The notes under the pieces were generated by a model. That model saw nothing but the letters and a program-made list of their open reading frames with translations, did no database searches and was not told the origin of the DNA. The position numbers were made by a program, and so were the translations under genes. Shown in pieces: positions 16,045-64,000 of a DNA stretch of 64,000 bases. The DNA comes from Gammaproteobacteria bacterium (GTDB taxonomy: Bacteria; Pseudomonadota; Gammaproteobacteria; CAJXQU01). The stretch is from assembly GCA_965238175.1 (NCBI GenBank), contig CBDEGZ010000003.1, positions 1,600,001-1,664,000 on the forward strand. The letters are read 5' to 3'. Each line of letters opens with the position of its first letter. The stretch's first letter is position 1.

Positions 16045-17353
16045 ATGAATGTAGTGATGATAGGATCTGGGTATGTTGGTCTGGTTTCGGGGACATGTTT
16101 TGCAGAGTTCGGTGTAAATGTCACCTGTGTCGATGTCGATGAAAATAAGATCGCTCGTCTAGAAGAAGGCGAAATTCCAATTTATGAGCCTGGTTTAAGT
16201 GACTTGGTGAAGAAAAATGTCGAAGATGGTCGCTTACATTTTTCAACGGAACTTAAAGATAATGTAGGTAATGCTGATCTAATATTTATTGCTGTTGGTA
16301 CACCGACACGCCGTGGAGATGGTCATGCAGATCTAAAATATGTCTACAGTGCGGCTGAAGATATCGCAAAGTATCTGCAGGGTTACACTGTCATAGTCGA
16401 TAAATCTACGGTTCCTGTGGGCACTGCAAGGAATGTTGAACGCGTTATTCGTGCAACAAATCCTGAAGCAGACTTTGACGTAGCATCGAATCCGGAATTT
16501 TTACGCGAAGGTGCGGCAATTTCAGATTTTATGCGACCTGACCGAGTGGTAATTGGTGTTGAAAGTGATCGTGCAGAAGCATTATTAAGAGAACTTTACC
16601 GCCCGATCAATTTGATTGAAGCTCCTATCATGAAGACTGATCTAGAAAGTGCAGAATTGATCAAATACGCATCAAACGCGTTTCTTGCCACCAAGATTAG
16701 TTTTATCAATGAAATGTCGATGCTCTGTGAAGCGATTGGGGCAGATGTTCATGCCGTCGCAAAAGGGATGGGGTTAGATGGGCGAATTGGTAGAAAAATT
16801 TTTACATGCAGGGCCTGGCTATGGCGGATCATGTTTTCCAAAGGATACCCAAGCTCTTGTAAGAATTGCTCAAGAACATGGCGTTTCTTCACGTATAGTT
16901 GAAACTGTTATCGAAGTTAATGCTGCTCAAAAAGCGAGAATGATCAAAAAAATAAGAACTGCATTAGGCGGTAATGAAGCAGGAAAAACAATTGCAGTGT
17001 TTGGTCTTACATTCAAACCTGAAACAGATGACATGCGTGATTCACCTGCGCTTTCTATTCTGCCAACATTAATCGAAAAGGGTGCCATGATAAAAGCTCA
17101 TGATCCAAAAGGGATCGAAGAAGCAAAGCATCTACTGCCCAAACAAGTCATATACTGTGAAGAACCGATGGATGCAATCAAAGGTGCTGATGCAATTGTC
17201 CTAATGACAGAATGGAATGTATATCGTGGATTGAATCTTGAGAAATTACGAGAACAAATGAAGGGCAATGTATTCGTTGATCTGAGAAATGTATACGAAG
17301 CAGAACAGATGAAAAAAGCAGGGTTTGATTACCATTGTGTTGGGCGAGCATAA
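16045..17353 (+). pseudogene. ugd: UDP-glucose/GDP-mannose dehydrogenase split by a +1 frameshift (real or sequencing error)
   Basis: ORF 16045-16902 has GSGYVG and SNPEFLREG; ORF 16778-17353 has GPGYGGSCFPKD and FKPETDDMRDSP. Removing one A from A5T5 (16794-16803) restores RIGRKFLHAGPGYGG. Confidence 0.9.
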
Positions 17354-28924: not shown

Positions 28925-29236
28925 ATGACCAGCAACAGAAAACCATACAAAACCTATACCCGAGAATTCAAACTAGAAGCGTTACGCTTGATGGAGCAAT
29001 CAGATAAACCGTCATCTGAGATTGCCGCTGAACTTGGTATACGGCGTAATCAGCTCTATAAATGGAAAGAACAACTGACCGACAAAGGTGATACTGCATT
29101 CCCAGAACAACGTGGAAGGCCTAAGAAAGAAGCACAAAGTGAACTCACCACCTTACGCCAAGATAATGCACGGCTGAAGGAGGAAGTTGAGATATTAAAA
29201 AAGGCCGCGGTGTACTTTGCAGGCGAACTCAAGTGA
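28925..29236 (+). CDS. IS3 transposase OrfA
   Basis: HTH YTREFKLEA...IAAELGI...LYKWK, leucine zipper, ILKKAAVYFA; A6G frameshift motif at 29197-29203. Confidence 0.93.
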   Translation: MTSNRKPYKTYTREFKLEALRLMEQSDKPSSEIAAELGIRRNQLYKWKEQLTDKGDTAFPEQRGRPKKEAQSELTTLRQDNARLKEEVEILKKAAVYFAGELK

Positions 29237-30093
29237 AGTACGCCTTTATTAAAATACAACGTCGCCATCACTCTGTGTCGTTATTATGTCGCACCCTGAC
29301 TGTCTCAGTCAGTGGTTATTATGATTGGTTAGACAGGCCTCAAAGTAAGACACACTCAACGAATCAACGGTTACTGACGAAAATAAGATGTTTTCATCAA
29401 GCTAGTTTTAAGCGTTATGGTTCACCTCGGATACATCGAGACCTACTCGATTCAGGTGAAAAAGTAAGTCGACCGCGTGTTGCACGTTTGATGAAGACTG
29501 CTGGCATTCAATCGAAGATGGCCAAACGGTTTGTGATTACAACCAATTCAAAAAATACCACAGCACCTGCACCCGATAGGCTCAAACGTGAATTTCGTGT
29601 CAATGAAACAAATAAAGCCTGGGTAGCTGACACGACCTTTATTCGTACTCGGCAAGGTTGGTTATATTTGGCTACCATGATGGACTTGTATTCACGGCAA
29701 ATTATTGGCTGGGCGATGTCTGAGCGTAATGACACCAAGCTAGTCACTGATGCGTTAACGATGTCGCTGTCACGCAGAGACAAGGCAAAAGATGTGATTG
29801 TCCATTCCGACCAAGGCAGCACTTATGCCTCGGGTGATTATCGAAAGCTCATTAAAGATAATGGCTTCCTTTGTAGTATGAGCCGAAAAGGTGAATGCCA
29901 TGATAATGCGGTCGCTGAAAGTTTCTTCGGCAGCCTCAAAACAGAGTTGGTTGATGATGAGGATTATCGAACACGTAGCGATGCCAAACAAAGCCTATTT
30001 CACTATATTGAAGTGTTTTATAATCGAAGACGGAGGCATTCTTATTTAGGCTATGTTAGCCCTGTAGAATTTGAGCGGGCAAATGCCCCTTAG
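29233..30093 (+). CDS. IS3 transposase OrfB (DDE)
   Basis: YGSPRI, WVADTT, HSDQGSTY, DNAVAESFF and YNRRRRHS. Confidence 0.95.
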   Translation: MKYAFIKIQRRHHSVSLLCRTLTVSVSGYYDWLDRPQSKTHSTNQRLLTKIRCFHQASFKRYGSPRIHRDLLDSGEKVSRPRVARLMKTAGIQSKMAKRFVITTNSKNTTAPAPDRLKREFRVNETNKAWVADTTFIRTRQGWLYLATMMDLYSRQIIGWAMSERNDTKLVTDALTMSLSRRDKAKDVIVHSDQGSTYASGDYRKLIKDNGFLCSMSRKGECHDNAVAESFFGSLKTELVDDEDYRTRSDAKQSLFHYIEVFYNRRRRHSYLGYVSPVEFERANAP

Positions 30094-48161: not shown

Positions 48162-50468
48162 ATGGGATCTATCGAAAACAATTTGGGAACCTGGGTTATT
48201 CGTTATCGCTGGATGATTATCCTTTTGTCGATAGTTTTTGTAGCGCTTGCTGCGAGTGGTGGGAAATTTTTGAAATTCACCAATGATTACAGGATCTTTT
48301 TTAGTGAAGATAATCCGGAGTTATTAGCCTTCGAAGCACTTGAAAAGAGGTATTCAAAAACGGATACCGTTGTTTTTGTTCTCGAACCAAAGGGTGGAAA
48401 TATTTTCACATCAGAAATTTTAGCTGTCGTTGAAAATTTAACCGAAGAAGCGTGGCAGATCCCATATTCATCAAGAGTCGACTCAATTTCAAATTACCAA
48501 CATACCGAGGCTGAAGAAGATGATCTGATTGTTCGCGACCTGTATGAAAATGCAACTGAACTATCAGCAACCGAAATCGAACATGTCAAAACCATTTCAA
48601 CTACGGAGCCATTATTAGTCAACCGTCTTGTTTCTGAATCAGGTCATGTTACTGGGGTAAGTGTTACTGTTTTGTTTCCTGGAATAGATGAGAATACCGA
48701 AACGCCAGAAGTGGTTAAATTTGTCCGAAATATGGCTGACAATATTGAGAAATCGCATCCCGATATAAAAGTATATCTAACAGGTGTTGTGATGTTGAAC
48801 AACGCCTTTGGTGAAGCATCTCGTGGTGATATTACTAAATTGGTGCCGATCAGTTTTGCGGTAATGGTTTTGATGTTAATGTTTTTAACCCGAAGTTTTG
48901 CGGGTACTTTCTTAACAATATTAGTTATCTTTTTTTCCATCTTGGCCGCGATGGGTTTGGGTGGGCGTATCGGTTATCCAATTACTCCGCCATCAGCTTC
49001 AGCACCAACAATGATATTGACGATGGCGATTGCAAACTCGGTTCATGTAATCGTTTCTTTTCTTCATGCAATGCACCAAGGAAATCCTAAAATTGAAGCG
49101 ATTAAGGAAAGTATTCGAGTCAATATTCAACCGGTTTTTCTTGCTAGTATTACAACTTGCATCGGTTTCTTGAGCATGAATTTTTCAGATGCTCCTCCTT
49201 TCAGACATCTCGGAAACTTTGTGGCGATGGGCGTTGCCACAGCATTTATATTATCAATGACATTTTTACCTGCGATGTTGTCACTATTACCTGTTAAAGC
49301 AAAAAAGCTTGAAAATAGTGAAGATGCTTTGATGACCCAATTAGGTCGGTTTGTGGTTGATAAAAGAAAACCTTTGCTGTGGATAATGTCAGCTTTGGTC
49401 ATTGGTTTAGTATCGATGATTTCTAGAAATGAATTGAATGATATTTTCGTCAACTATTTTGATAAGTCAGTTGAGTTTAGAGCTGATTCGGATTTTATGG
49501 TTGATAATTTAACCGGACTTTATTACATCGAATATTCGTTAAGTTCGGGTGAAGAAAGTGGAATTAATAATCCGGAATTTTTAAAAGATGTTGATGTTTT
49601 TGCAGAGTGGTTTCGACAACAACCTGAAGTAATTCATGTAAATACCTTGACTGATATTATGCAACGTCTTAATAAAAATATGCATAGTGACGATCAAAAA
49701 TATTACAAATTACCTGAACAGCGTGAGCTATCTGCACAGTATTTATTACTCTATGAAATGTCATTACCTTATGGTCTTGATTTGAATAATCAGATTGATA
49801 TTAGTAAGTCTTCGATCCGATTTATTCCATCGCTCCAAACCTTGTCTAGCAACGGTGTTATCGATCTGAATAATCGAGCTTACCAATGGCTGAAGGATAA
49901 CACTTCCAGTATTGAATTGAGCGTTAATCCAGGTTCGGGCACGGCATTAATGTTTGCTAATATTGGAAAACGGAATATTCAAAGTATGTTGGGTGGAACA
50001 ACCTTAGCACTAGTATTGATCTCGATGATACTAATGTTTGCTTTTCGATCATTTAAAATAGGACTTATTAGTTTATTACCTAATCTGGTACCCGCTGGGT
50101 TAGGGTTCGGATTATGGGGGATAATGGTTGGTCAAGTTGGCCTTGCTCTTTCTGTGGTGACAGGAATGACACTTGGAATTGTCGTTGATGATACGGTCCA
50201 TTTTTTAAGTAAATATTTAAGAGCGCGTCGTGAAAAAGGTTTAAGTTCACAAGATGCGGTCGTCTATGCGTTTTCAACGGTTGGAAGAGCGTTAGTCATC
50301 ACATCATTTGTTCTGGTTGCAGGCTTTTTGGTGTTATCACTTTCAAGTTTTGAATTGAATGCCGGCATGGGTTTATTAACGGCAATCGTTATTGTGTTTG
50401 CATTGATGGCAGACTTTTTATTGTTACCACCACTGTTAATGAAGTTTGAGGAGAAGAGTAATGTATAA
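48162..50468 (+). CDS. MMPL/RND-family lipid transporter
   Basis: Two MMPL repeats, GIVVDDTVHF, TTCIGFLSM. Confidence 0.88.
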   Translation: MGSIENNLGTWVIRYRWMIILLSIVFVALAASGGKFLKFTNDYRIFFSEDNPELLAFEALEKRYSKTDTVVFVLEPKGGNIFTSEILAVVENLTEEAWQIPYSSRVDSISNYQHTEAEEDDLIVRDLYENATELSATEIEHVKTISTTEPLLVNRLVSESGHVTGVSVTVLFPGIDENTETPEVVKFVRNMADNIEKSHPDIKVYLTGVVMLNNAFGEASRGDITKLVPISFAVMVLMLMFLTRSFAGTFLTILVIFFSILAAMGLGGRIGYPITPPSASAPTMILTMAIANSVHVIVSFLHAMHQGNPKIEAIKESIRVNIQPVFLASITTCIGFLSMNFSDAPPFRHLGNFVAMGVATAFILSMTFLPAMLSLLPVKAKKLENSEDALMTQLGRFVVDKRKPLLWIMSALVIGLVSMISRNELNDIFVNYFDKSVEFRADSDFMVDNLTGLYYIEYSLSSGEESGINNPEFLKDVDVFAEWFRQQPEVIHVNTLTDIMQRLNKNMHSDDQKYYKLPEQRELSAQYLLLYEMSLPYGLDLNNQIDISKSSIRFIPSLQTLSSNGVIDLNNRAYQWLKDNTSSIELSVNPGSGTALMFANIGKRNIQSMLGGTTLALVLISMILMFAFRSFKIGLISLLPNLVPAGLGFGLWGIMVGQVGLALSVVTGMTLGIVVDDTVHFLSKYLRARREKGLSSQDAVVYAFSTVGRALVITSFVLVAGFLVLSLSSFELNAGMGLLTAIVIVFALMADFLLLPPLLMKFEEKSNV

Positions 50469-51243
50469 AAAATATTCTGTAATATTGTTATTAACTCTAT
50501 TTATTTTTAATGTTTCAGCAGAAACGCCCGAAGAAAAAGGCTTGGCTATCGCGCAAGAAGTGGATAAACGAGATACAGGCTGGTCTGATATTACTAGTGA
50601 TCTTCATATGATTCTGAGAAATGCACAGGGTGAGGAGAGTGTACGAGAAATTAGGTTGAAAACATTGGAAGTAGTTGGCGATGGTGATAAAGGTTTGACT
50701 ATTTTTGATTCACCAAAAGATGTTAAAGGTACGGCTTTTTTAAGCTTTACCCATTCTGTTAAAGCAGATGATCAATGGTTATATTTGCCTGCACTGAAAC
50801 GTGTTAAACGAATTTCTTCATCAAATAAATCGGGGCCTTTTATGGGCAGTGAATTTTCCTTTGAGGATCTAAGTTCTTTTGAGGTGGATAAATATAAATA
50901 TAAATATTTGCGCGATGAACCTTTTAATGGAAGAGAAGCATTTGTTGTAGAAAATTATCCACAATACAAACATTCTGGATATAAGAAACTGATCGTTTGG
51001 ATAGACAAAGAAATCTATATGCCATTGAAGTTTGAATTTTATGATCGTAAAAATTCCTTATTGAAAACGCTTACATTTAGCGATTACAAACAATATCTTG
51101 ATCAATATTGGAGACCTAACAGTCAAAATATGATTAATCATCAAAGTAAAAAAAGTACTTTGTTGAGGTGGAGTAATTACAAATTCAAAGTAGGTCTTTC
51201 TAGTCGTGATTTTGATAAAAATTCGTTAAAACGCGCCAGGTGA
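50461..51243 (+). CDS. Outer membrane lipoprotein-sorting (LolA-like) protein
   Basis: PKDVKGTAFL, DDQWLYLPALKRVKRI and FMGSEFSFED. Confidence 0.88.
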   Translation: MYKKYSVILLLTLFIFNVSAETPEEKGLAIAQEVDKRDTGWSDITSDLHMILRNAQGEESVREIRLKTLEVVGDGDKGLTIFDSPKDVKGTAFLSFTHSVKADDQWLYLPALKRVKRISSSNKSGPFMGSEFSFEDLSSFEVDKYKYKYLRDEPFNGREAFVVENYPQYKHSGYKKLIVWIDKEIYMPLKFEFYDRKNSLLKTLTFSDYKQYLDQYWRPNSQNMINHQSKKSTLLRWSNYKFKVGLSSRDFDKNSLKRAR

Positions 51244-51283
51244 ATGATAAATATAAATCAGATCAAAATTATTTATAAAGATC

Positions 51284-52483
51284 ATGCACAAAAAATCACT
51301 AGCAATATTATTTGTATTATTACCATTGCTCTCATACGCCGGTGAATGGTCTGGTTATATAGGTACTGAAGCAAGATTGTTTCCACACTCGGCATTGAAT
51401 TCAGAGCAGGATCATTCTAATAATTGGTCTGTTGTTGCGGAACCAGAATACTACAGTGAGTGGGACGATGGATGGCAGAGTTTTACAGTTGTACCATTTT
51501 TAAGGATAGATCAACACGATAGTGAACGAACACATTTTGATATACGAGAGCTTACCTGGTTAAAGGCCGCTGATAATTGGGAACTACGTGTTGGGTTAAG
51601 ACAAGTGTTCTGGGGTGTCGCAGAATCTAATCACTTAGTCGACATAATTAATCAAACCGATCTGATCGAAAATATTGATACAGAAGATAAGCTTGGACAA
51701 ATGATGATCAATTTTGCCCTGATCAAAAATTGGGGAACAGTCGATTTTTTTATAATGCCGGGATTTCGTGAACGTACATTTCCCGGAATTGAAGGACGGC
51801 TAAGGACTCAACCTCGTGTTGATACTGATCATCCAGTTTACGAATCCTCTGCCGAAAATAAGCATATCGATTTTGCTATACGTTGGTCGCACGTCATTGG
51901 TGATTTTGACATTGGGCTGTCACATTTTTATGGGACTAGCCGAGATCCACGATTTGTATCTGGAACTAATAGGGCAGAACCAGTTCTAATTCCACACTAT
52001 GATGTTATTAATCAAACCAGTCTTGATTTACAAGCGACTAGAGAAGATTGGTTGTGGAAGCTGGAAATAATTTATCGTTCTGGTCAAGAGGATGCAACAG
52101 GCGACGATGATTATTTTGCACTAGTAGGTGGATATGAATATACCTTCATAGGTGTTTTTGAATCTATTATAGATGTCGGTATTGTTTCTGAGTATTTATT
52201 TGATGACCGAAATGACGATGCTCTAACCCCCTTTGAAGACGATATCATGATTGGTGTTCGTCTGGCATTAAACGATGTGCAGAGTAGTGATCTGTTATTC
52301 GGCATCATTTTTGATCGAGATAGCAGTGCGAAGTTTTTTAGTTTGGAAGCGGGTCGTCGTCTAGGTGATAGTTGGAAATTAGAAGTCGAAACACGGTTCT
52401 TCAGTGATATACCTAAAGACGATTTACAGTATATCTTTCGTAATGACGATTATTTTCAATTTTCACTCTCACGTTATTTCTGA
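51284..52483 (+). CDS. Outer membrane beta-barrel protein
   Basis: Signal peptide, alternating aromatic strands, WGVAES..LVDIINQ, C-terminal Phe (SRYF). Confidence 0.75.
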   Translation: MHKKSLAILFVLLPLLSYAGEWSGYIGTEARLFPHSALNSEQDHSNNWSVVAEPEYYSEWDDGWQSFTVVPFLRIDQHDSERTHFDIRELTWLKAADNWELRVGLRQVFWGVAESNHLVDIINQTDLIENIDTEDKLGQMMINFALIKNWGTVDFFIMPGFRERTFPGIEGRLRTQPRVDTDHPVYESSAENKHIDFAIRWSHVIGDFDIGLSHFYGTSRDPRFVSGTNRAEPVLIPHYDVINQTSLDLQATREDWLWKLEIIYRSGQEDATGDDDYFALVGGYEYTFIGVFESIIDVGIVSEYLFDDRNDDALTPFEDDIMIGVRLALNDVQSSDLLFGIIFDRDSSAKFFSLEAGRRLGDSWKLEVETRFFSDIPKDDLQYIFRNDDYFQFSLSRYF

Positions 52484-52569
52484 GATTTAAAAGTATTTCA
52501 ATTACTTAATATTTCCTTAAGGATAGATCTTCAAAATGTCTAGCGTACAGAACATCGGAGTTCGTAGGC

Positions 52570-53016
52570 GTGCTAGAAAAACAATTAGTAGAAGCGTTAA
52601 AAGTAGTTCATAAATCGCTATTTAAAAATAAGCAATCTGATCTATTTGATCTACAACTGTTAGATCAATATACAGGTGAAAGACAGGCTGCAGAAAAGTT
52701 CATCAGAGATATTTTTCTTAATACCTATTCTGCAAATATACAACATTTTTATCCTTTTTTATTATCTATTAAACGTAAAAATGACCAGTTTGCTGCTATC
52801 GCAGGTATTCGTCCAGCTTGTTTAGAAAACTTATTTTCAGAAAATTATCTCGACAAGTCTATTGAAGAGGTTTTACAAATACCACGAGAAAAAATAATCG
52901 AGATAGGTAACTTGGCACCGGCAGATGCAGGGCAAGCACGTTGGTTAATCACTACTTTAAGTGCATTTATGAATGCTGCTGGTTTTACTCATGTGGTAGA
53001 ACTAAATAGAAGCTAA
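52570..53016 (+). pseudogene. Thermostable-hemolysin-family protein, C-terminally truncated
   Basis: FIRDIF..YSANI..FYP, LFSENYLD and REKIIEIGNLA. Ends at GFTHVV and runs into the convergent arsC. Confidence 0.7.
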
Positions 53017-55135: not shown

Positions 55136-56440
55136 TTAAAATTTAAATTGCAGATAAGCCCAGAACTTGCTGACATCAGCGGCGGTATTAGCTGAATTAA
55201 AGTTATTCTGATCGGTATTGTAATCTGAATATTTTAGTCCGACTGTGTAATGTTTCTTGAATGTTTTCGTCACAAGAAGATCCAATTCTGTTCCATAGTC
55301 ATAATTATCCCTATCCGAACTTAAAGCATGATATGAAGCAATAAATTTAGTACCGAACATCTTCATCGCTGCCGTAAAATATATGTCCTCAATACCGTCG
55401 CCCGGTGTGATCAAAAAGCGATCTGCCCAGCCTTGGAACGCATGATTAGTCCCAAGGATAGTAACAAAGCGGTCTGCGCCACCGTTACCGTCCAATAATT
55501 CATAACTAAATTTTAGCGTTAAAGACTTAACGAAACTATCCAATTGAAAGTTGACGCCTAATTCGCCAAGAAAATAGCCTGCGCTGATCTGATTAGTATT
55601 ATCAGCTGTGTCCGATTGGTGTGCATATTCGGCGGCATAGATCATCTTTGTATTGTTATTTAGAGGGAGATCGCCATTGGCCCGTAAGCCATATGTGTTG
55701 GTAGAAAATTGTGCGGCATTATCAAAATCTAGTAAGTAGGCGTATGCCTCGATTTCTGCAGCTTTTAAGCCTTCATATTTTATATTGACTATGTGTGAAT
55801 TGCTTTCGAAATCATCAAATGGATCAGGTGCATCTTCTCCGAAAATACGATTGATATTCCAGACATAGGCATAACTAAATGTTATGTCTGCCAGTGATTG
55901 ATTAACAATGCTGACAGCATCAAACGTTTGCCAATTTTGGCGCCATAAAATCGTTCCAATGAATCGATGGAAGGGTGCCTCTCGGTAGGTGATTTGTTGT
56001 CGTCCGATTTTGATTGAGGTGTTGCTTAGGAAATTGTCTTTCCCTGCATAAGACAAATAAGCCTGATTGATTTCTGTTCCCTCTGGATCAGCAACGACTG
56101 GAAAGCCTGGTTGTATCCTTCCTGGATATGAAAAATCATCACCAAAAAATTCCTGAACATGTTCTAGCTGCCCATAAAAACCAAAACCATGAAAACTACC
56201 TGTTTTGTAACCTAGTGCTATTCGAGCGGTGTGTGCATTAGCTTCACGCTGTTGAGTGTCATCATCAACATTTTCATAACGAAACCTGATATTGAGATCA
56301 ACTTTACCACTTTTCATATGATCCCAGAAAACATTCTTGGCATGTGCAGAAGGAAGACTTAGAGCAAAGATATTAATCAATAAATAAAAAGATAATTTAT
56401 TGCATGAAAAATGTGTTCGTTTTTTTAAAACTGGTTCCAC
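55136..56440 (-). CDS. Alginate-export-family outer membrane porin
   Basis: Signal peptide, RFRYENVD, VADPEGTEINQAY, WRQNWQTFDA, GTNHAFQGWAD, C-terminal Phe. Confidence 0.85.
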   Translation of the reverse strand: MEPVLKKRTHFSCNKLSFYLLINIFALSLPSAHAKNVFWDHMKSGKVDLNIRFRYENVDDDTQQREANAHTARIALGYKTGSFHGFGFYGQLEHVQEFFGDDFSYPGRIQPGFPVVADPEGTEINQAYLSYAGKDNFLSNTSIKIGRQQITYREAPFHRFIGTILWRQNWQTFDAVSIVNQSLADITFSYAYVWNINRIFGEDAPDPFDDFESNSHIVNIKYEGLKAAEIEAYAYLLDFDNAAQFSTNTYGLRANGDLPLNNNTKMIYAAEYAHQSDTADNTNQISAGYFLGELGVNFQLDSFVKSLTLKFSYELLDGNGGADRFVTILGTNHAFQGWADRFLITPGDGIEDIYFTAAMKMFGTKFIASYHALSSDRDNYDYGTELDLLVTKTFKKHYTVGLKYSDYNTDQNNFNSANTAADVSKFWAYLQFKF

Positions 56441-56500
56441 AATAATTGCTCCAGATTATTCTTCCGCAAGGGAAGATTATGTTAATTTTTAATACTGAAA

Positions 56501-56514
56501 TTGATCTATGTCAA
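56501..56514. promoter_or_regulatory. FNR/DNR-type box in the divergent promoter
   Basis: TTGAT-CTAT-GTCAA (9/10 match to TTGAT-N4-ATCAA). Its centre is 29.5 bp before a TAGTTT -10 (56537-42), i.e. class II spacing. Confidence 0.75.
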
Positions 56515-56588
56515 ATTGTTGTACCACGGTCAGTGTTAGTTTGTAGCTGTCAGGTTCGTCCAGAAGTATTTTTGAAGAGGGATAAATA

Positions 56589-57563
56589 ATGCTCGATGAA
56601 AAATTAGTATTTCATGCTTCATTTGTAACACTGTCACTTACTATGTTTTTGATCTTTTTTCCTTTTCAAGTAATTGCCGAAGGTGATGCAATAGAAGGAA
56701 AAAAACAAGCCACGATTTGTGTTACTTGTCATGGCGCAAACGGGATTAGTAGCCAGGAAATCTGGCCAAATTTGGCCGGACAGAAATATAATTATCTGGT
56801 AAAGCAGCTTAAGGCCTTTCGTGATGGGAACCGTAAAGAACCCAGTATGGAAATGATGGTGGGATCGCTGTCTGATAGAGAAATTGAAAATATCGCCAGC
56901 TTCTTCAGTAGTATTCAACTAACAGCGAATGTAGATGAGGGGCTTCTGGCCAGCAAGACTGCTCAGCCAATCGTAGCTCAAGATGTTAGCCCGGATGTAA
57001 ACACAGGATCGGAACTCTATACTCAAAATTGTGTATTTTGCCACCAGGCTGATGCCATTGGGAAACCAGGAACAGCTCCCTCCCTAACCAATAAAGAATT
57101 ACTGAGCAGTGCCTCTGACGCTTTCTTTTTCGACACTATCCGTGATGGCAGACCGGGCACGGGTATGCCACCTTTTGCACATCTTGGTGAAGATAAGATA
57201 AAAGCGATTATAGCTTTTTTGCGTGATCACACTGATCAAGCAAACTTGGCAGCAGAGATTGATGCCCAGCCTGCAGCGAAAGGTGATCCTGCTCATGGAG
57301 AACAATTATTTGAACTGATCTGCTCCACCTGCCATGGCGAAAGGGGTGACGGCTATGCTTCAGGAGGAACTGGCACCGCTATCGGCAAGCTGGGATTTCT
57401 GAGTAAAGTTTCAGATGGCTTTATTCGCACTACCGTGAAACAAGGCCGTTCCAATACCCGAATGCTTGGTTTTCAGGGTCCTGAAGGTTTGGCCAACCTG
57501 AATGATCAGGATATAGACGATCTTATCGTTTATTTACGTAATTTACCCAATGATCTCAAGTGA
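56589..57563 (+). CDS. Trihaem c-type cytochrome (c4/c553-like domain plus two class I domains)
   Basis: CVTCH, CVFCH and CSTCH; WPNLAGQ; distal Met candidates in SMEMM, GMPPF and RMLGF. Confidence 0.9.
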   Translation: MLDEKLVFHASFVTLSLTMFLIFFPFQVIAEGDAIEGKKQATICVTCHGANGISSQEIWPNLAGQKYNYLVKQLKAFRDGNRKEPSMEMMVGSLSDREIENIASFFSSIQLTANVDEGLLASKTAQPIVAQDVSPDVNTGSELYTQNCVFCHQADAIGKPGTAPSLTNKELLSSASDAFFFDTIRDGRPGTGMPPFAHLGEDKIKAIIAFLRDHTDQANLAAEIDAQPAAKGDPAHGEQLFELICSTCHGERGDGYASGGTGTAIGKLGFLSKVSDGFIRTTVKQGRSNTRMLGFQGPEGLANLNDQDIDDLIVYLRNLPNDLK

Positions 57564-57583
57564 CGCTTTAGAGGAATAATAAA

Positions 57584-60256
57584 ATGAAACGATTCAAACA
57601 AAACCGACGCGATTTCATCAAAAACAGTACATTTATTACTGGATCAGCGGCGGGGGCGAGCCTGTTGGTGGGTAAAAATCCGGAGCTTGAAGCAGCCGTT
57701 CCAGAGGTGGCATCTGCAACACGCACCACAGCGTTGGCTCAATGTCCTTATTGCGGAGTGGGTTGTGGAACGATTATTCAGGCGGAAAATGGCAAAATTG
57801 TTTCCATGCGACCGGATAAAGATCATCCGACTAATTATGGTTTGCAATGTATTAAAGGATTGACTGCGGCCGAGCCTATGTATGTTGATCGGATGGAAGG
57901 TGATTCCTACGTGCGTAAAGATGTTTGGGAAGAATGGAATAAACCCAATCATGGTGATATGGAATATATTTCCAAAACCAAAGGTGCGTTTGATGAGGAT
58001 CTGTTCGTCCGTGTTCCCTATGAGCAAGCCTCGGAAATGACCGCGCACAAAGTTGCTCATTTGGCTAAAAAATATAGCGGTAATTCCATTGCGCTTTATG
58101 GATCAGGTCAGCTCACCATGGAAGGTCAATACCTTGAAAACTTATTTATGAAGGGCGTACTAGGGTCAAATACTATTGAGGCTAATGCACGCATGTGTAT
58201 GACCTCGGCCGTAACGGGATATTTCGCCACGTTGGGATCAGACACTCCACCATTGGCTTATGAAGATATCGAGCTGTGCGACATGCTAATGCACTTTGGC
58301 CATAACGCTCGCGAGTCTCACCCGATTATTTTTTGGCGAGCAGCTGATCACAAGAAGAAAAAAGATATTCCCACAGTCGTTGTTGATCCTCGTCGTACCG
58401 GTACCACCAGTGGTTATGAAGATATAAATCCAGACAATCATGTTCATGCCCCTGTCCTGAATGGCGATATCAGCTTTCTTAACTCTTTGGCTCATGTTTT
58501 ATTAAAAGATCACGATGATGTGATCGATTGGGAATTCGTCAAAGAACATGCGACTGGTTGGGAAGAATATGTCGAGGCGGTTCGTAACGATTATAGTCCT
58601 GAGCAGGTACAGGATCGTATGGGTTCTGATGAAGTGACTCCAGAAATGATCCGCCGAGTTGCCGGCATGTTTGCCGATGCAACGCGCAAACGACTGGCTC
58701 GAGGTAAGGATGGGCAAGGTGGTGTAATCATCATGTGGGGCATAGGTTATAACCAACATATTCACGGTCAGCACAATATAATTTCGATTATTAATTTACT
58801 CGCCTTAACTGGGAATTTAGCGAAGCCGGGTTGTGGGCCATTCTCAATGACCGGCCAGCCCAATGCCATGGGAGAGCGTTTTACAGGCGGCCTAACTGGA
58901 CGCTTACCTTTTAACGAACCTTTATCTAATCCCAAGCACTTAATCCATATGGCGAATGCCTGGAGAGTACCTGAAGATAATCTTAAAAAGGCGCTTAATT
59001 CTGAAAATCCGGGTTATGCCGTTGGCATGATGGAACGAGCTTTAAAAGGTGAAGTAAAAGCGATGTTCCTGGTTTATGCCACGCATATTGATCTGCCTGA
59101 TCAGCATAATCTGGTTCGTCCGGCACTGGGTAAGACCTTTAATGTTGTGCAAGAAATTTACCGCCACGCACCGAATAATCTTTATGCCGATGTGATTTTC
59201 CCAGCAGCGACCTGGGGTGAAGTCAATGGTGTCTATATCAGCTCAGAGCGGCGGATCAATATTTGCGAAAAAGCGGCAGAGCCACCTCCCGGATGTCGGC
59301 CAGATATGGATATGGTGATCGACAAGGGTAAGGAGATTGCTCATCTACTTGGGTTAGATGCAGAGAAAATATTCCCCTACCAGCGTCTTGAAGATGGCAC
59401 CTATGATGCTGAAGAAGTATTACGTGATGTCATGCGTGCTTCCATCGGAACTGACACTGATCTTGCCGGAATTTTGGAGGTGGAAAGACTTGACGGGATC
59501 AGCCCTTACGAACAACTGAAAAAATTACGAGGTATTCAATGGCCAGCACCTACCTACGAGAACGCTAAAACGGGAGGTACCAAACGACGCTATATGTTGC
59601 AGGAAGGGTGGGAAAATCGTCCCTACGGTTATTTCCGTACCAAGGATGGCAAAGTGCATTTTAAATTATGCAAACAAGATTATACGAATCGTCGCGAGAT
59701 TACAGATAAGTTGATGGAGTTCGGTACTAAAGAAGGTCATTACACCATCGATCATATTAATTTGCTAACCGAAGCTCGCGATAAAGGATTAACGCCAGAT
59801 ATGACCGATGATGATCATCGTGAAACTAAATGGGATGCAGTCCCCGAAGGGAAATATCCATACTGGTTGGGGTTGGGTGTTGTGTATGAACATTTTCATA
59901 CCGCCAAATCTAACCGCAGTCCGACAACGCAGCGACTGGTGCCGGAACAATATGTGGAAATGCATCCCGAAGATGCTAAGGCTTTAGGCATAGAAGATGG
60001 TGATAAGGTACGTTTGGTCACGCGTCGTGGGCATTACGAGGCCAAGGCACAGGTAGGCACTAACAGTCTGGTTAAACCTGCGCGTAATTCTGTGCCGCGT
60101 GGATATATGTTTAGCCCGTGGAATCTGTCTGTAGCTGATAGTGCCGATCCGAAAAAGAATAAGTGGTTGGTGAATGGCACATCCAGCCGCGTTTGGGATC
60201 TGGTTTCTGGTCAGGTGGATTTTAAGAAACTTGCCTGTCGAGTTGAAAAAGTTTAG
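57584..60256 (+). CDS. Tat-exported Mo-bis-PGD oxidoreductase, divergent nitrate-reductase (NapA/NasA) family
   Basis: NRRDFIK Tat motif, CPYCGVGC...CIKG 4Fe-4S site, GSGQ, NARMCMTSAV (Cys Mo ligand), FSMTGQPNAMG, SERR, C-terminal EMHPEDA...SGQVDFK. Confidence 0.85.
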   Translation: MKRFKQNRRDFIKNSTFITGSAAGASLLVGKNPELEAAVPEVASATRTTALAQCPYCGVGCGTIIQAENGKIVSMRPDKDHPTNYGLQCIKGLTAAEPMYVDRMEGDSYVRKDVWEEWNKPNHGDMEYISKTKGAFDEDLFVRVPYEQASEMTAHKVAHLAKKYSGNSIALYGSGQLTMEGQYLENLFMKGVLGSNTIEANARMCMTSAVTGYFATLGSDTPPLAYEDIELCDMLMHFGHNARESHPIIFWRAADHKKKKDIPTVVVDPRRTGTTSGYEDINPDNHVHAPVLNGDISFLNSLAHVLLKDHDDVIDWEFVKEHATGWEEYVEAVRNDYSPEQVQDRMGSDEVTPEMIRRVAGMFADATRKRLARGKDGQGGVIIMWGIGYNQHIHGQHNIISIINLLALTGNLAKPGCGPFSMTGQPNAMGERFTGGLTGRLPFNEPLSNPKHLIHMANAWRVPEDNLKKALNSENPGYAVGMMERALKGEVKAMFLVYATHIDLPDQHNLVRPALGKTFNVVQEIYRHAPNNLYADVIFPAATWGEVNGVYISSERRINICEKAAEPPPGCRPDMDMVIDKGKEIAHLLGLDAEKIFPYQRLEDGTYDAEEVLRDVMRASIGTDTDLAGILEVERLDGISPYEQLKKLRGIQWPAPTYENAKTGGTKRRYMLQEGWENRPYGYFRTKDGKVHFKLCKQDYTNRREITDKLMEFGTKEGHYTIDHINLLTEARDKGLTPDMTDDDHRETKWDAVPEGKYPYWLGLGVVYEHFHTAKSNRSPTTQRLVPEQYVEMHPEDAKALGIEDGDKVRLVTRRGHYEAKAQVGTNSLVKPARNSVPRGYMFSPWNLSVADSADPKKNKWLVNGTSSRVWDLVSGQVDFKKLACRVEKV

Positions 60257-60295
60257 CAATATTTCTGATTCTATAGTTGATGGTGCGGGAGACAA

Positions 60296-60868
60296 ATGAA
60301 ACGTAGAAAGTTTCTAATTAATCTGGCCACAACAGCGGCAACTGCGGCACTGCCTGTCTTATCAGAAGGTAAAGTCACTCGGCATAAACCGGGTATGCGT
60401 TATCTTCGACCACCGGGTTCGTTGGATGAAGATGATTTTCTTTCTCGTTGCATTCGCTGTGGTCAGTGCAGTGAGGCTTGTCCGAATAACTGTATCAAGT
60501 TTTTTGATACAGAAAACGGTTTATCGTCTTTCGGAACCCCATACATCACGCCAAGAGAGCAAGCATGTATTCTTTGTATGAAATGTGGTGACGCCTGTCC
60601 AACTGGTGCAATTAAACCGATCGAACGTAATGCTGAAGAGATTCTTTCCGAAGTAAAAATGGGTAGCGCCCGGGTTGATGAAAATTTGTGTCTTTCCTAT
60701 CAGGGTAAGTCATGCGGTGTTTGTTATCGCGCCTGTCCATTGCCTGATGTTGCAATAAAGGTAGGTTGGATGGAGCAACCTGAAGTGACGGACAAATGTG
60801 TCGGTTGTGGTTTGTGTGAACGCTCATGCATTCAGATCCCACAAGCAATTAAGGTGATCCCAACGTGA
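60296..60868 (+). CDS. napG: NapG/MauM-family ferredoxin-type protein
   Basis: RRKF leader, LRPPG, four Cys clusters (CIRCGQC, CILCMKC, CGVCYRAC, CVGCGLC), GTPYI. Confidence 0.8.
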   Translation: MKRRKFLINLATTAATAALPVLSEGKVTRHKPGMRYLRPPGSLDEDDFLSRCIRCGQCSEACPNNCIKFFDTENGLSSFGTPYITPREQACILCMKCGDACPTGAIKPIERNAEEILSEVKMGSARVDENLCLSYQGKSCGVCYRACPLPDVAIKVGWMEQPEVTDKCVGCGLCERSCIQIPQAIKVIPT

Positions 60869-61884
60869 TAAGAAAAACTCATTATTGGGCAAGACACTTG
60901 AATAAGTTGCGTTGGATAAGCTTAAGTGTCGTTTTTATTATATTGATCATCATTCCTTGTTTAAGTGTTTATCAAACTTATATTGCAGCACATGCCTATG
61001 ATCTATTAATGCCCGGCGAGAAAAGTTTTTATAATGTCATGGAATTTCTCACCAAACCCTTCACCAATAATCCCGAGAAAGATTTAGATGTTATTAAAGG
61101 AAGCACCTGGTCAGGAAATTTTTTCGGCTACAAAATAAGTGATCCTTTAGCCATAGCAGGGCAAGTTGCTGCAGGAACAAGTATCTATTGGCCTTTCATC
61201 TGGACAGCAATAATCCCCATTTTTTTATCAGTGATATTAGGTCGGTTTTTTTGTGGCTGGATCTGCCCAGCCACTTTTCTCTATGAACTCAATAGTAATC
61301 TGCGTGCTTGGTTGGATCATGTTGGGCTCCCAGTCGGCAAGCAACATTTTGATCGGCGTCTGAAATATCTGGTGCTGATTATCGGGTTGGTTTTATCAAT
61401 TTTGACAGGATCAGTTTTGATCGCAGCAGTTTATCCGCCGGCGATTATTGGCCGAGAAATTTACTATGCGATCGCTCTGGGAGGTTTTGGTGTCGGTGCA
61501 GTATTTTTTGCCTTTACATTATTGTTCGATCTGCTGGTAGCAAGACGTGGTTTCTGCCGTTATCTGTGTCCGGGCGGTGCGCTTTATTCGTTGTTAGGAC
61601 GCTATCGTCTATTACGTATTCAACGCGATGTTAAAACGTGCAACGACTGCATTAAATGTACCGCGATCTGCGAGTTTGAACTCGACCCAATGCGCGATGA
61701 CTTTGGCCAAGAATGTAATAACTGCACAGCTTGCATTGCTATTTGTCCTACCGACGCTTTGAAACTTTCTATTCGTACGAAAGATAAATCTTATCAAGGG
61801 GCAGGTCATATGGGGAAAAAATATAAGGGGTTTGATCAGAAAACATCAGAACAGCTTACCCTTAAAAAAGAGAAAGCAGCCTGA
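60865..61884 (+). CDS. napH: NapH/MauN-family quinol dehydrogenase membrane subunit
   Basis: DPLA, GRFFCGWICP, FCRYLCPGG and two CxxCxxC ferredoxin motifs. Confidence 0.85.
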   Translation: MIRKTHYWARHLNKLRWISLSVVFIILIIIPCLSVYQTYIAAHAYDLLMPGEKSFYNVMEFLTKPFTNNPEKDLDVIKGSTWSGNFFGYKISDPLAIAGQVAAGTSIYWPFIWTAIIPIFLSVILGRFFCGWICPATFLYELNSNLRAWLDHVGLPVGKQHFDRRLKYLVLIIGLVLSILTGSVLIAAVYPPAIIGREIYYAIALGGFGVGAVFFAFTLLFDLLVARRGFCRYLCPGGALYSLLGRYRLLRIQRDVKTCNDCIKCTAICEFELDPMRDDFGQECNNCTACIAICPTDALKLSIRTKDKSYQGAGHMGKKYKGFDQKTSEQLTLKKEKAA

Positions 61885-62495
61885 TGCATCGTAGAAAATT
61901 TATTAAACAGGCGACTGTTGGAACCAGCATTGCAGCAACAGGATGCATACCCTTTGTCCTTGCACGTTTGCTTGCGCCTGAAAATGACACATACAAACTG
62001 AATAATTATTTGCGACCACCAGGTGCGCTCAAAAATGACTTGGCATTTAGTGAAGTTTGTATCGGTTGTGAACTTTGTGCAGAGGTTTGTCCTCCTTGTT
62101 GCATTCAATTCCACAAGCGAGAAGGTGGTGCGCAGGTTAACACACCGTATATTGATCCTGAAAAAAAAGCCTGCACTCTTTGTTCAAAGTGCATGGACGT
62201 TTGTCCGACAGAAGCCTTAACACCTACACCTCGTGAAGAGGTTGATATGGGCATTGCACAAATTGATCGTACTGCGTGTTATCCCTGGGTGGATAAAGGA
62301 ATTTGTGGTGCCTGTGCCGTTGCATGTCCACTCGGAGAAGATGCTATAGGTTTTGATTTCGCAAACATTTATCGCCCGGTCGTTAAAAAAGGTTGTGTCG
62401 GTTGTGGGCTATGTGTTGAGGTTTGCCCGCATCCTAGTTTGCCGATCAGAATTGTAGAACGCTCCAAGGGTTCGGTGACAGAACATCGTGTTTGA
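61884..62495 (+). CDS. Second NapG/MauM-family ferredoxin-type protein
   Basis: RRKF leader, LRPPGA, CIGCELC, CTLCSKC, CGACAVACP and CVGCGLC. Confidence 0.85.
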   Translation: MHRRKFIKQATVGTSIAATGCIPFVLARLLAPENDTYKLNNYLRPPGALKNDLAFSEVCIGCELCAEVCPPCCIQFHKREGGAQVNTPYIDPEKKACTLCSKCMDVCPTEALTPTPREEVDMGIAQIDRTACYPWVDKGICGACAVACPLGEDAIGFDFANIYRPVVKKGCVGCGLCVEVCPHPSLPIRIVERSKGSVTEHRV

Positions 62496-62507
62496 GTTTA
62501 ATTAATC

Positions 62508-63086
62508 ATGCTGTCATTTATCAAATCGTTATTTTTTTTTATTACACTTTTAACTAGCATTACAAGTACGGCTCATCATGTGCTTGGCAGGCCTGCTTAC
62601 AGTCTGAGTGAAGATTCAACGACACCACCGAGCATGCAGGTTGAAACTCAGATAGGTAATTATTATGTAACCTATATGGTCTTTCCTGCTTTCCCAAGTC
62701 CGGAACAACCTGGCCGGGTAAATCTCTATGCTTCAAGGATTGATGATGGTCAGCCTTTTCAGGGCGAGGTCACTTTCAAAGTTCGCGGTGACAGTTGGTT
62801 TAGTGATGAAGAAGAGATGCTGGGCAAACAACCCGCAGACGATAATGTTTTCCGTCAGGGTTTCGAATTTAAGCAATCAGGAAAGTACATCATCCGTGCA
62901 GAGTTCAGCGTTGATGATGAGCCATATCAGATCGATTTTCCTTTGCAAATTGGTGAACCTTCACCTTTTGGTCCCATTGGGCTGGCAGTAGGCATGATAA
63001 TTTTTGTCTTGCTGGCAGTGAATCTGTTACAACGTAAGAGGCTGGTTGGCGCGAAAATACGCAGCAATGTTCGCCCTGATGAGTAA
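62508..63086 (+). CDS. Hypothetical exported protein with C-terminal TM anchor; predicted mature N-terminus His-His
   Basis: Signal peptide ending TSTA/HHVLGRP, beta-rich domain, TM PIGLAVGMIIFVLLAV followed by RKR. Confidence 0.75.
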   Translation: MLSFIKSLFFFITLLTSITSTAHHVLGRPAYSLSEDSTTPPSMQVETQIGNYYVTYMVFPAFPSPEQPGRVNLYASRIDDGQPFQGEVTFKVRGDSWFSDEEEMLGKQPADDNVFRQGFEFKQSGKYIIRAEFSVDDEPYQIDFPLQIGEPSPFGPIGLAVGMIIFVLLAVNLLQRKRLVGAKIRSNVRPDE

Positions 63087-63104
63087 GACGAACGAGAGCA
63101 GATT

Positions 63105-64000
63105 ATGGTTATGACTCATCCAGGTTTGCCAGGAGTATGGGTGCTTGTCGCTATATTCGTCATGCTTTTTTTAATGCTCAGAGTATTTCGTACATCAGCA
63201 GCGCCAGTAATGACTGGCGCCCATATTAGTCTGATAGAGCTGCCCGTCATTAGTTTTATTATACGACGGTTAACCGCAAACCCCTGGCCATTAATTGGCT
63301 TGAAGATAATTATGGTATTTATTTTTTTGCTGGTGATCGCCGCAGGCCTGTTTGGGTCACCTATTCCTGAGCGTAATATCGCGACAGTATTGACCTGGAA
63401 CATCTGGTGGGCAGGGTTACTGGTCTCGGTTTTTTTTCTTGGTTCTGCCTGGTGTGCGATCTGTCCCTGGGACACCTTGTCCACCTGGATAGTGCGTCGG
63501 CGACTTTGGCAGCGTGCTCCAGCAAATGCCAGCTTGAACTTAAAAGTACCTCGCTGGTTGAGAAGTGTGTGGCCCGCACTGATCATGTTTATTGGTTTGA
63601 CCTGGCTTGAACTGGGCTTGGGAATTACAACTAATCCCTATTTGACGGCGGTTTTGGCTTTGATCATGGTGGTTATGGCGACGACATCATTAGCGATTTA
63701 TGAAGGCAAAGCTTTTTGCCGATATTTTTGTCCGGTTGGGAGAACGATAGGTTTTTATTCGCAGCTGGCGCCTGTTGAGTTAAGACCTATAGATACAGAT
63801 CTGTGTGTGAATTGCACCAGTCTTGCCTGCTATCACGGCACAAAAACGATTGAGCCATGCCCAACACATTTAGTCATGGGTAGACTGCAGCAAAATACCT
63901 ACTGTATTTCTTGTGGCAATTGCAGTCAAAGTTGTCCTGATCATAATATTGCCTGGCGATTACGTGCGCCGAGTAAAGAAGCAATACATAGCGCCAGACC
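63105..64000 (+). CDS. Polyferredoxin-like 4Fe-4S-binding membrane protein (partial; absent from the ORF track)
   Basis: Own translation: MVMTHPGLP...NIATVLTWNIWW...WCAICPW...FCRYFCPVG...CVNC..LAC...CP...CISCGNCSQSCP; open to the window end. Confidence 0.85.
   Translation, partial: MVMTHPGLPGVWVLVAIFVMLFLMLRVFRTSAAPVMTGAHISLIELPVISFIIRRLTANPWPLIGLKIIMVFIFLLVIAAGLFGSPIPERNIATVLTWNIWWAGLLVSVFFLGSAWCAICPWDTLSTWIVRRRLWQRAPANASLNLKVPRWLRSVWPALIMFIGLTWLELGLGITTNPYLTAVLALIMVVMATTSLAIYEGKAFCRYFCPVGRTIGFYSQLAPVELRPIDTDLCVNCTSLACYHGTKTIEPCPTHLVMGRLQQNTYCISCGNCSQSCPDHNIAWRLRAPSKEAIHSAR

Follow-up and report, generated by a model that had tools for sequence, protein, structure and literature searches.

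The window analyzed here is a 64,000-nt stretch (G000:C3:1600001-1664000) of a gammaproteobacterial genome (G000; 3.35 Mb, 97.7% complete), and at its right-hand end lies an operon encoding a molybdenum-bis-pyranopterin guanine dinucleotide (Mo-bis-PGD) enzyme with a twin-arginine translocation (Tat) leader, a cytochrome c, NapG- and NapH-type ferredoxins, a membrane-anchored protein with an invariant His-His pair (the His-His protein) and a membrane polyferredoxin (Table 1). A porin gene is divergent from the operon, and the FNR-type box TTGATCTATGTCAA lies between the two. These elements had been described in a first-pass annotation of the same DNA, and its eight open reading frames (ORFs) are found in the sequence and ORF translations at the places it gave, as are the box, the pair of NapG-like genes flanking a NapH-like gene, and the GTGA (60865) and TGATG (61884) overlaps. 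Downstream sequence confirms that the operon runs past the window: the polyferredoxin gene stops at 64625 and is followed by one further ferredoxin gene and then by unrelated genes. The reported lack of nap genes stands for napB, napC and napD, for which tblastn with E. coli, congener and Mo-enzyme-family queries gave no match in the whole source genome, but not for napF, as the last gene of the operon is napF-like. Similarly, the cytochrome is trihaem here, with three CxxCH motifs, but not across the operon family, in which 74 of 77 labelled cytochromes have two. The GC content of the operon (43–46%) is barely above that of the genome (40%) and gives no clear sign of recent transfer.

Table 1. 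Features of the Mo-enzyme operon and its upstream region, in window numbering.
Feature	Position	Strand	Basis
Outer-membrane porin	55136..56440	-	Opr-porin match weak, 31.9 bits vs cut-off 150; Pfam: none
FNR-type box TTGATCTATGTCAA	56501..56514	.	One mismatch to TTGAT-N4-ATCAA
Class I cytochrome c, three CxxCH	56589..57563	+	Three Cytochrom_C domains; best profile CcoP-like, below cut-off
Tat-exported Mo-bis-PGD catalytic subunit, 890 aa	57584..60256	+	RRDFIK Tat motif; profiles, fold, tree
NapG/MauM-type ferredoxin with Tat leader (NapG1)	60296..60868	+	PRK09476, 148.6 bits vs cut-off 269
NapH/MauN-type membrane ferredoxin, CxxxCP motifs	60865..61884	+	PRK09477, 150.5 bits vs cut-off 234
Second NapG-type ferredoxin with Tat leader (NapG2)	61884..62495	+	Profile search
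His-His protein, membrane-anchored periplasmic immunoglobulin (Ig) fold	62508..63086	+	Alignment, model, fold search
Membrane polyferredoxin, 506 aa	63105..64625 (window ends 64000)	+	Cys-Pro motifs
NapG/NapF-type ferredoxin, 214 aa, last gene of the operon	64622-65266 (L001:10623-11267)	+	Beyond window

The catalytic subunit (hereafter the Mo enzyme) belongs to the DMSO-reductase superfamily (PF00384, 133 bits against a cut-off of 24, with matches to PF04879 and PF01568). The source genome has six PF00384 genes including this one; according to our reading of their sequences and neighbors, the other five encode a cytoplasmic Fdh, NuoG and three unrelated proteins of 690–710 amino acids (aa). 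The Mo enzyme stays below the cut-offs of the curated NapA profiles (TIGR01706, 296.8 vs 930.55; PRK13532, 315.5 vs 904), the NasC and NasA profiles (232–270 bits vs 1000–1100) and the AioA-type profile TIGR02693 (109 vs 359). Its closest sequence match is Desulfovibrio desulfuricans NapA (E 3.7e-75), which is also the top Foldseek match of its predicted model (predicted local distance difference test score, pLDDT, 90.8), with a template-modeling (TM) score of 0.90 by target length and 27% identity. One [4Fe-4S] cluster is assigned to C54, C57, C61 and C89, and C205 is the Mo ligand. The traits of periplasmic Nap (Tat leader, single [4Fe-4S] cluster, Cys-Met pair, and conserved Lys, Gln and Arg) are all present, and the Nap/Nas catalytic residues K91, R203, C205, M206, D220, Q425, R432 and R440 are retained. 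Met follows the Cys ligand in 7/7 family rows, whereas His does so in 5/5 Fdh rows; a Cys rather than an Asp ligand separates the enzyme from (per)chlorate reductases, and the retained C205 separates it from AioA/IdrA, although the tree held no IdrA sequence. The Tat leader and a source genome without nirB distinguish it from assimilatory Nas/NarB enzymes.

Phylogenetic analysis was based on a 144-row FastTree (proteins shorter than 640 aa and P0174, P0202, P0250, P0255, P0188 and P0253 left out) and a 39-row IQ-TREE (rows left out include the long-branch P0125, P0239 and P0224 and the second Mo enzyme of L064), with NapA and NasA labels on unnamed rows assigned by us from profile scores, motifs and the 144-row tree. 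Both trees place the Mo-enzyme family on a separate branch (100/100, with a long stem, in IQ-TREE), inside the Cys-Met group (100/100 against Fdh). In both, the family also lies outside the NapA clade (100/99) and the NasA clade (100/99), and the free tree places it outside NapA with 81/94. In approximately unbiased (AU) tests, nesting with canonical NapA (E. coli, Sulfuricurvum, L057) was rejected (p=4.55e-8), one clade with NasA was weakly rejected (p=0.036, LG+G4), and placing the family as sister to all NapA, with the short forms, was not rejected (p=0.286). By these sequence comparisons the Mo enzyme is a clade of its own within the Nap/Nas group and a member of neither canonical Nap nor Nas. 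The earlier proposal of an uncharacterised, FNR-linked periplasmic oxyanion-reductase module outside canonical NapA is thus borne out by the tree and topology tests: the catalytic subunit does not fall inside canonical NapA, no napB or napD follows it, and the literature searches found no characterised system with this gene order.

Scanning 185,579 species genomes yielded 351 matches, and the best 80 stretches (58–87% identity) were fetched. Among these 80, carriers are found in gamma-, alpha- and betaproteobacteria, Magnetococcales, Mariprofundaceae and Bdellovibrionota, and the gene order is conserved across the 80 loci, most of which have a two-haem His/Met cytochrome. More distant family members stand at 41–52%, and the distant locus L154 retains the two-haem cytochrome, Mo subunit, NapH and NapG, which marks these genes as the old core of the operon. 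In an even sample of the host class, 23 of 400 genomes (~6%, G000 included) carry the Mo enzyme, and 13 of the 23 have no NapA or NarG match. No plasmid member was found among 1394 records (best below 60%, top rows about 30%). Cultured carriers are Shewanella gelidimarina, S. eurypsychrophilus, S. abyssi and Photobacterium profundum, in which the Mo enzyme is annotated only as a molybdopterin-dependent oxidoreductase or hypothetical protein; under the terms tried, neither a proteomics study of P. profundum nor its two supplements list it. Literature searches, whose coverage excluded most subscription papers, found no description of this operon, and none of the four nap operon types given in the available part of PMC13223375 resembles it. 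NasC/NasA and NapA become one family once metagenome-assembled genomes are added, according to PMC10100899, whose sequence sets may include the Mo-enzyme family under NasC/NasA or NapA names.

Gene content was counted in 61 loci whose downstream sequence spans 5.5 kb or more, and in 51 loci with both flanks (fully flanked). NapG1 and NapH are each present in 60/61 loci and the last ferredoxin in 59/61, whereas NapG2, present in 36/61, is dispensable. The last ferredoxin has an RR motif without a hydrophobic stretch and is therefore probably cytoplasmic, like NapF. A napC-type gene occurs in 26 of the 51 fully flanked loci, and napD/napB in two, where they belong to a neighboring canonical nap operon. 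In 24/51 loci the operon is adjoined by a gene for a DUF255/thioredoxin protein with a DsbD N-terminal-like domain; in G000 this gene lies 300 kb away (G000:C3:1958871-1961273).

The cytochrome gene is present in all 51 fully flanked loci and in one sister-clade locus. Its two-haem core is invariant in the alignment (C148/C151/H152/M193 and C245/C248/H249/M292), and Met193 and Met292 are likely to be the distal haem ligands. An additional, c553-like mono-haem domain is fused to the N terminus here and in the congener G056; L010 and L011 have a separate mono-haem gene in its place. NapB haems are bis-His, unlike those of this His/Met cytochrome, and His/Met haems usually have a high potential. 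The two-haem cytochrome is proposed to be the electron donor that replaces NapB, and the NapH/MauN-type protein is proposed to be a quinol dehydrogenase.

The His-His gene is found in 56/61 loci, with divergent forms in additional loci. H23, H24, G27 and P29 are invariant in 37/37 rows, and the His-His pair directly follows the inferred signal cleavage site. The predicted model (pLDDT 89.7) consists of an Ig-fold domain and a C-terminal membrane helix; its top fold matches are CrdA (Z 12.8), HftA (11.0), Tp34 (10.3) and FtrA-P19 (10.0), at 7–17% identity, and the protein also matches YtkA-like atlas clusters. As generic Ig folds score nearly as well (9–10.9), metal binding is only a lead, and a role as a metal-binding assembly factor is possible. 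A P19-like His2-Met2 site was considered and is not supported, because M43 is present in only 22/37 rows and, in our reading, the hairpin register of the model keeps the two Met residues apart. The polyferredoxin, which may resemble membrane polyferredoxins of the FtrD/CcoG type, has four invariant His residues in its C-terminal half and is encoded in 45/61 loci. Since the other 16 loci have lost it and keep the His-His gene, the two do not form an obligate pair; 15 of these 16 carry napC upstream, which suggests that NapC and the polyferredoxin have overlapping roles in quinol oxidation.

Upstream of the operon, 23 of 71 loci have an FNR box that departs from TTGAT-N4-ATCAA by no more than one base, whereas shuffled sequences predict 1.14. 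In the window, the center of the box is 41.5 bp upstream of the start site inferred by eye after a TG-n-TAGTTT −10 element (56534-56542), and on the porin strand the box overlaps a −35 match (TTGACA). A scan for sigma-70 promoters stayed at chance level (24 vs 25.9). The source genome has an FNR-type gene with the Cys motif and a perfect FNR box before ccoN. The operon is therefore probably induced by FNR at low oxygen, as far as can be judged from these sites. By eye, a NarX/NarL-like two-component pair adjoins the operon in L019, L021, L022 and L039, and would support nitrate as substrate if confirmed.

Porin homologues are present in 76/401 genomes of the host class. Their neighborhoods were surveyed at 33 loci, namely the best matches of homologue searches other than our own and unpublished loci. 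Of these, 24 are no more than 1.5 kb from nap, nasST/nrtA, nasA, narK, narI, ntrCD, nosR or a formate/nitrite channel gene (nasS and nasT were labelled by their similarity to the cluster of a congener), one adjoins the Mo-enzyme operon, and eight have no nitrate, nitrite or N-oxide gene nearby. The first-pass annotation had given the operon its own uptake porin; this does not hold, as the porin adjoins the operon in only 11/51 fully flanked loci, occurs in congeners without the operon and clusters by host lineage. In a 30-row tree, the copies of the genus form one group (100/99), in which the window and G056 copies are nearer to nap-linked ones (86/94, unstarred), and operon-linked porins are spread over three or more separate groups, which makes more than one origin of the link probable. 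Judged from its sequence relatives, the porin is an accessory recruited from the host lineage, of a family usually found by nitrate genes. The same neighbors tilt the choice between nitrate and another oxyanion, which had been left even, toward nitrate.

Evidence on the substrate also comes from seven congeners. The Mo enzyme is present in G000 and G056, canonical NapA in G051, G053 and G054, and NasA in G052 and G055, and none of the seven holds both the Mo enzyme and NapA. Reading from dnaJ-dapB, G053 and G054 have a convergent porin, an FNR box and then napF-D(-A), and in G056 the Mo-enzyme operon runs into a porin at the matching dapB site. The divergent layout of porin, FNR box and operon seen in the window recurs in G051, G053 and G054; in the window and G051 its neighbors are other than those of the dapB site. 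The operon thus lies where close relatives keep nap, and it probably reduces nitrate. NapA, NarG and NasA are all absent from the source genome, and G056 has nirBD and a formate/nitrite channel without NasA. Two single-contig genomes, G074 (nirS, norB, nosZ) and G195 (nirS, norB), carry the Mo enzyme and neither NapA nor NarG. A nirS cluster is present in 9/23 carriers and 58/377 non-carriers of the class sample (p=0.007, with kin that are not independent), and NapA in 7 of these 23 carriers. A narK-nirBD cluster in G074 (L171:2169-9999) encodes a 726-aa Nas/NarB-like enzyme followed by a fusion of an Fe-S protein and a membrane anchor (DmsBC-like, by eye) and TusE; this enzyme is possibly a quinol-linked cytoplasmic nitrate reductase, and a similar gene lies at G195:C1:870617-872692.

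Taken together, we favor, with a probability of about 0.65, a third lineage of FNR-induced, soluble periplasmic nitrate reductase. FNR would switch the operon on at low oxygen, and nitrate would enter through the host-lineage porin. Quinol would be oxidized by NapH with NapG, aided by NapC or the 506-aa polyferredoxin, and electrons would pass through the two-haem His/Met cytochrome, in place of NapB, and the [4Fe-4S] cluster to the Cys-ligated Mo center, yielding nitrite. In other hosts this nitrite could feed NirS or NirBD; in the source genome it would be a dead end, and the Mo enzyme would then act as an electron sink. A lifestyle of reducing nitrate to nitrite only has been proposed for another organism (PMC10993476). 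Sulfur compounds are likely electron donors for the operon: by eye, the source genome has a methanethiol-oxidase-like gene with a MauG-type partner (G000:C3:1406886-1410294) and a Sox cluster (1430209-1437790).

Several observations weigh against nitrate reduction. The substrate funnel differs from that of D. desulfuricans NapA, in which four charged residues are named in PMC13223375. Only two of that set (Arg354, Asp155, Glu156, Asp355) are retained: Glu156 corresponds to T221, although NasA also lacks this Glu, and Asp355 corresponds to F433, a position that is acidic in 10/10 NapA and 9/9 NasA rows and hydrophobic in 7/7 family rows. In addition, Met308 corresponds to I387, and a new Glu, E431, precedes the Arg. 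Active-site and funnel motifs are nearly invariant across 81 loci; the chemistry thus looks Nap/Nas-like and the funnel retuned. The source genome gave no match for nirS, nirK, nosZ, nirB or norB, whereas all three congeners with nap have nirS or nirK, and the congeners are a small sample of seven relatives. Canonical NapA is present in 21 of 50 carriers of a first set, some with two or three copies (this set overlaps the 23 class-sample carriers, and the two were not pooled), and L057 and L067 hold the Mo-enzyme operon and canonical nap side by side, the former running straight into a complete napFDAGHBC operon. The Mo enzyme does not significantly fill a gap, as NapA and NarG are both missing from 4/9 nirS carriers and 18/58 nirS non-carriers (p=0.46), and it is not the sole candidate in G074 and G195, which also hold cytoplasmic Nas-type genes. 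Furthermore, 14/23 carriers have no nirS cluster, nirK is above the cut-off in only 3/73, and no good FNR box was found within the 330 bases scanned at 48/71 loci.

One alternative is that the enzyme reduces another oxyanion (iodate, bromate, chlorate or selenate), with the anion porin and the control by FNR unchanged. The family-wide changes at Asp355, Met308 and the pre-Arg positions, nearly invariant in 81 loci, would suit it, as would the retention of the Mo enzyme beside one to three NapA copies in 21/50 carriers and a source genome without nitrite reductase. NapA itself slowly reduces chlorate and perchlorate (PMC12769810), which was also counted in favor of this alternative. Yet chlorite dismutase (Cld) was found in only 1/51 carriers, as a weak match, and this near-absence speaks against chlorate respiration. 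The iodate reductase system IdrABP1P2 includes peroxidase and Rieske genes, and neither type occurs in the conserved operon. Given also the mutual exclusion with nap and the common porin site among the congeners, we consider another oxyanion an unlikely substrate.

A further possibility concerns the source of the electrons. Canonical Nap conserves no energy through the Q cycle, whereas a periplasmic reductase of nitrate (or of another marine oxyanion, e.g. iodate or bromate) could do so if its His/Met two-haem partner, fused here to a c553-like domain, drew electrons from high-potential cytochrome c downstream of bc1, with the His-His protein and the polyferredoxin as a metal-handling assembly module derived from cbb3/Ftr-type systems; this arrangement is doubtful at present. 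Coupling to a bc complex was not seen on the sister-clade contigs L154 and L155, whose short length limits this negative. It is quite improbable that there is no new lineage here and the enzyme is simply a NapA that has diverged and uses another cytochrome, in the manner of Desulfovibrio napCMADGH. A sister position to all NapA, which was not rejected (AU p=0.29), the Tat leader and the NapG/H partners would fit that description, but the scores of 297–316 bits on NapA profiles with cut-offs of 904–931, the long stem outside the NapA clade (100/100), the missing napD and napB and the two extra conserved genes speak for separation. Least probable of all is the oxidizing direction (nitrite or another reduced anion, with electrons passing to the His/Met cytochrome and then to a cbb3 oxidase or the quinone pool), which the CcoP-like His/Met partner and the FNR box of the host cbb3 oxidase would allow, but which fits poorly with NapG/NapH and NapC, quinol-oxidizing modules in Nap, with the replacement of nap among congeners, and with a Cys-Met enzyme, as known nitrite oxidoreductases are Asp-ligated relatives of NarG.

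If the Mo enzyme is a nitrate reductase, nitrogen-cycle inventories overlook a respiratory enzyme present in 23 of 400 genomes of the class, and its presence would account for some denitrifier genomes that seemingly lack the first step. It scores under the threshold of each curated nitrate-reductase profile tried, and probably escapes standard gene surveys. The family would also offer a natural test of the funnel residues behind nitrate specificity, and could show whether high-potential cytochromes are able to supply a periplasmic nitrate reductase. Should the enzyme act on another oxyanion instead, a common form of respiration is still undescribed. The cultured carriers make the operon directly testable.

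Other features were seen in the window and elsewhere in the source genome. In the window, UDP-glucose dehydrogenase appears as two ORFs of 285 and 191 aa that overlap (16045-17353), likely through a frameshift, within an exosortase/polysaccharide cluster that also has an integrase-core ORF of insertion-sequence type (29233-30090). Positions 48162-53016 encode an MMPL transporter, a LolA-like protein, a 399-aa outer-membrane-like protein and a 148-aa PF12261 ("thermostable hemolysin") ORF that looks truncated and overlaps a convergent arsenate-reductase-like gene. By eye, genes for 5-, 4- and 10-haem cytochromes, a cyclic-nucleotide-binding protein and a ferredoxin reductase-like protein lie at G000:C3:2088517-2099610, and Mu-like prophage genes at G000:C3:2101134-2113520.

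Among known systems, the Cu/Fe-binding proteins P19/FtrA and CrdA provide the best folds for the His-His protein, and a membrane polyferredoxin follows the His-His gene as in those systems; unlike P19/FtrA systems, the operon has no permease gene, and 16 loci that lack the polyferredoxin still encode the His-His protein. With NasA/NasC/NarB the Mo enzyme shares the GQPNAM motif and the lack of a Glu156 equivalent, but it differs in its Tat leader, respiratory partners, control by FNR rather than NasST, and lack of linkage to nirBD. The heterodimeric NapAB systems (E. coli napFDAGHBC; Campylobacterota napAGHBFLD) have in common with the operon the A-G-H order, a NapF-like last gene, an optional NapC and an FNR box, and canonical nap has the same porin neighbor in congeners; in contrast, identity to NapAB by structure is about 24%, grouping with it is rejected (AU p=4.6e-8), and napB and napD are lacking. 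The closest counterpart is the monomeric Nap of D. desulfuricans (napCMADGH; PDB 2NAP/2JIO), which shares Tat export, one [4Fe-4S] cluster, the Cys-Met pair, the Gln, Arg and Lys residues, NapG/NapH and the absence of NapB. The Mo enzyme departs from it in its separate clade, in the changes at Glu156, Asp355 and Met308, and in a source genome without NapD; a CcoP-like His/Met two-haem partner is present instead of NapM, and the His-His protein and the 506-aa polyferredoxin are extra.

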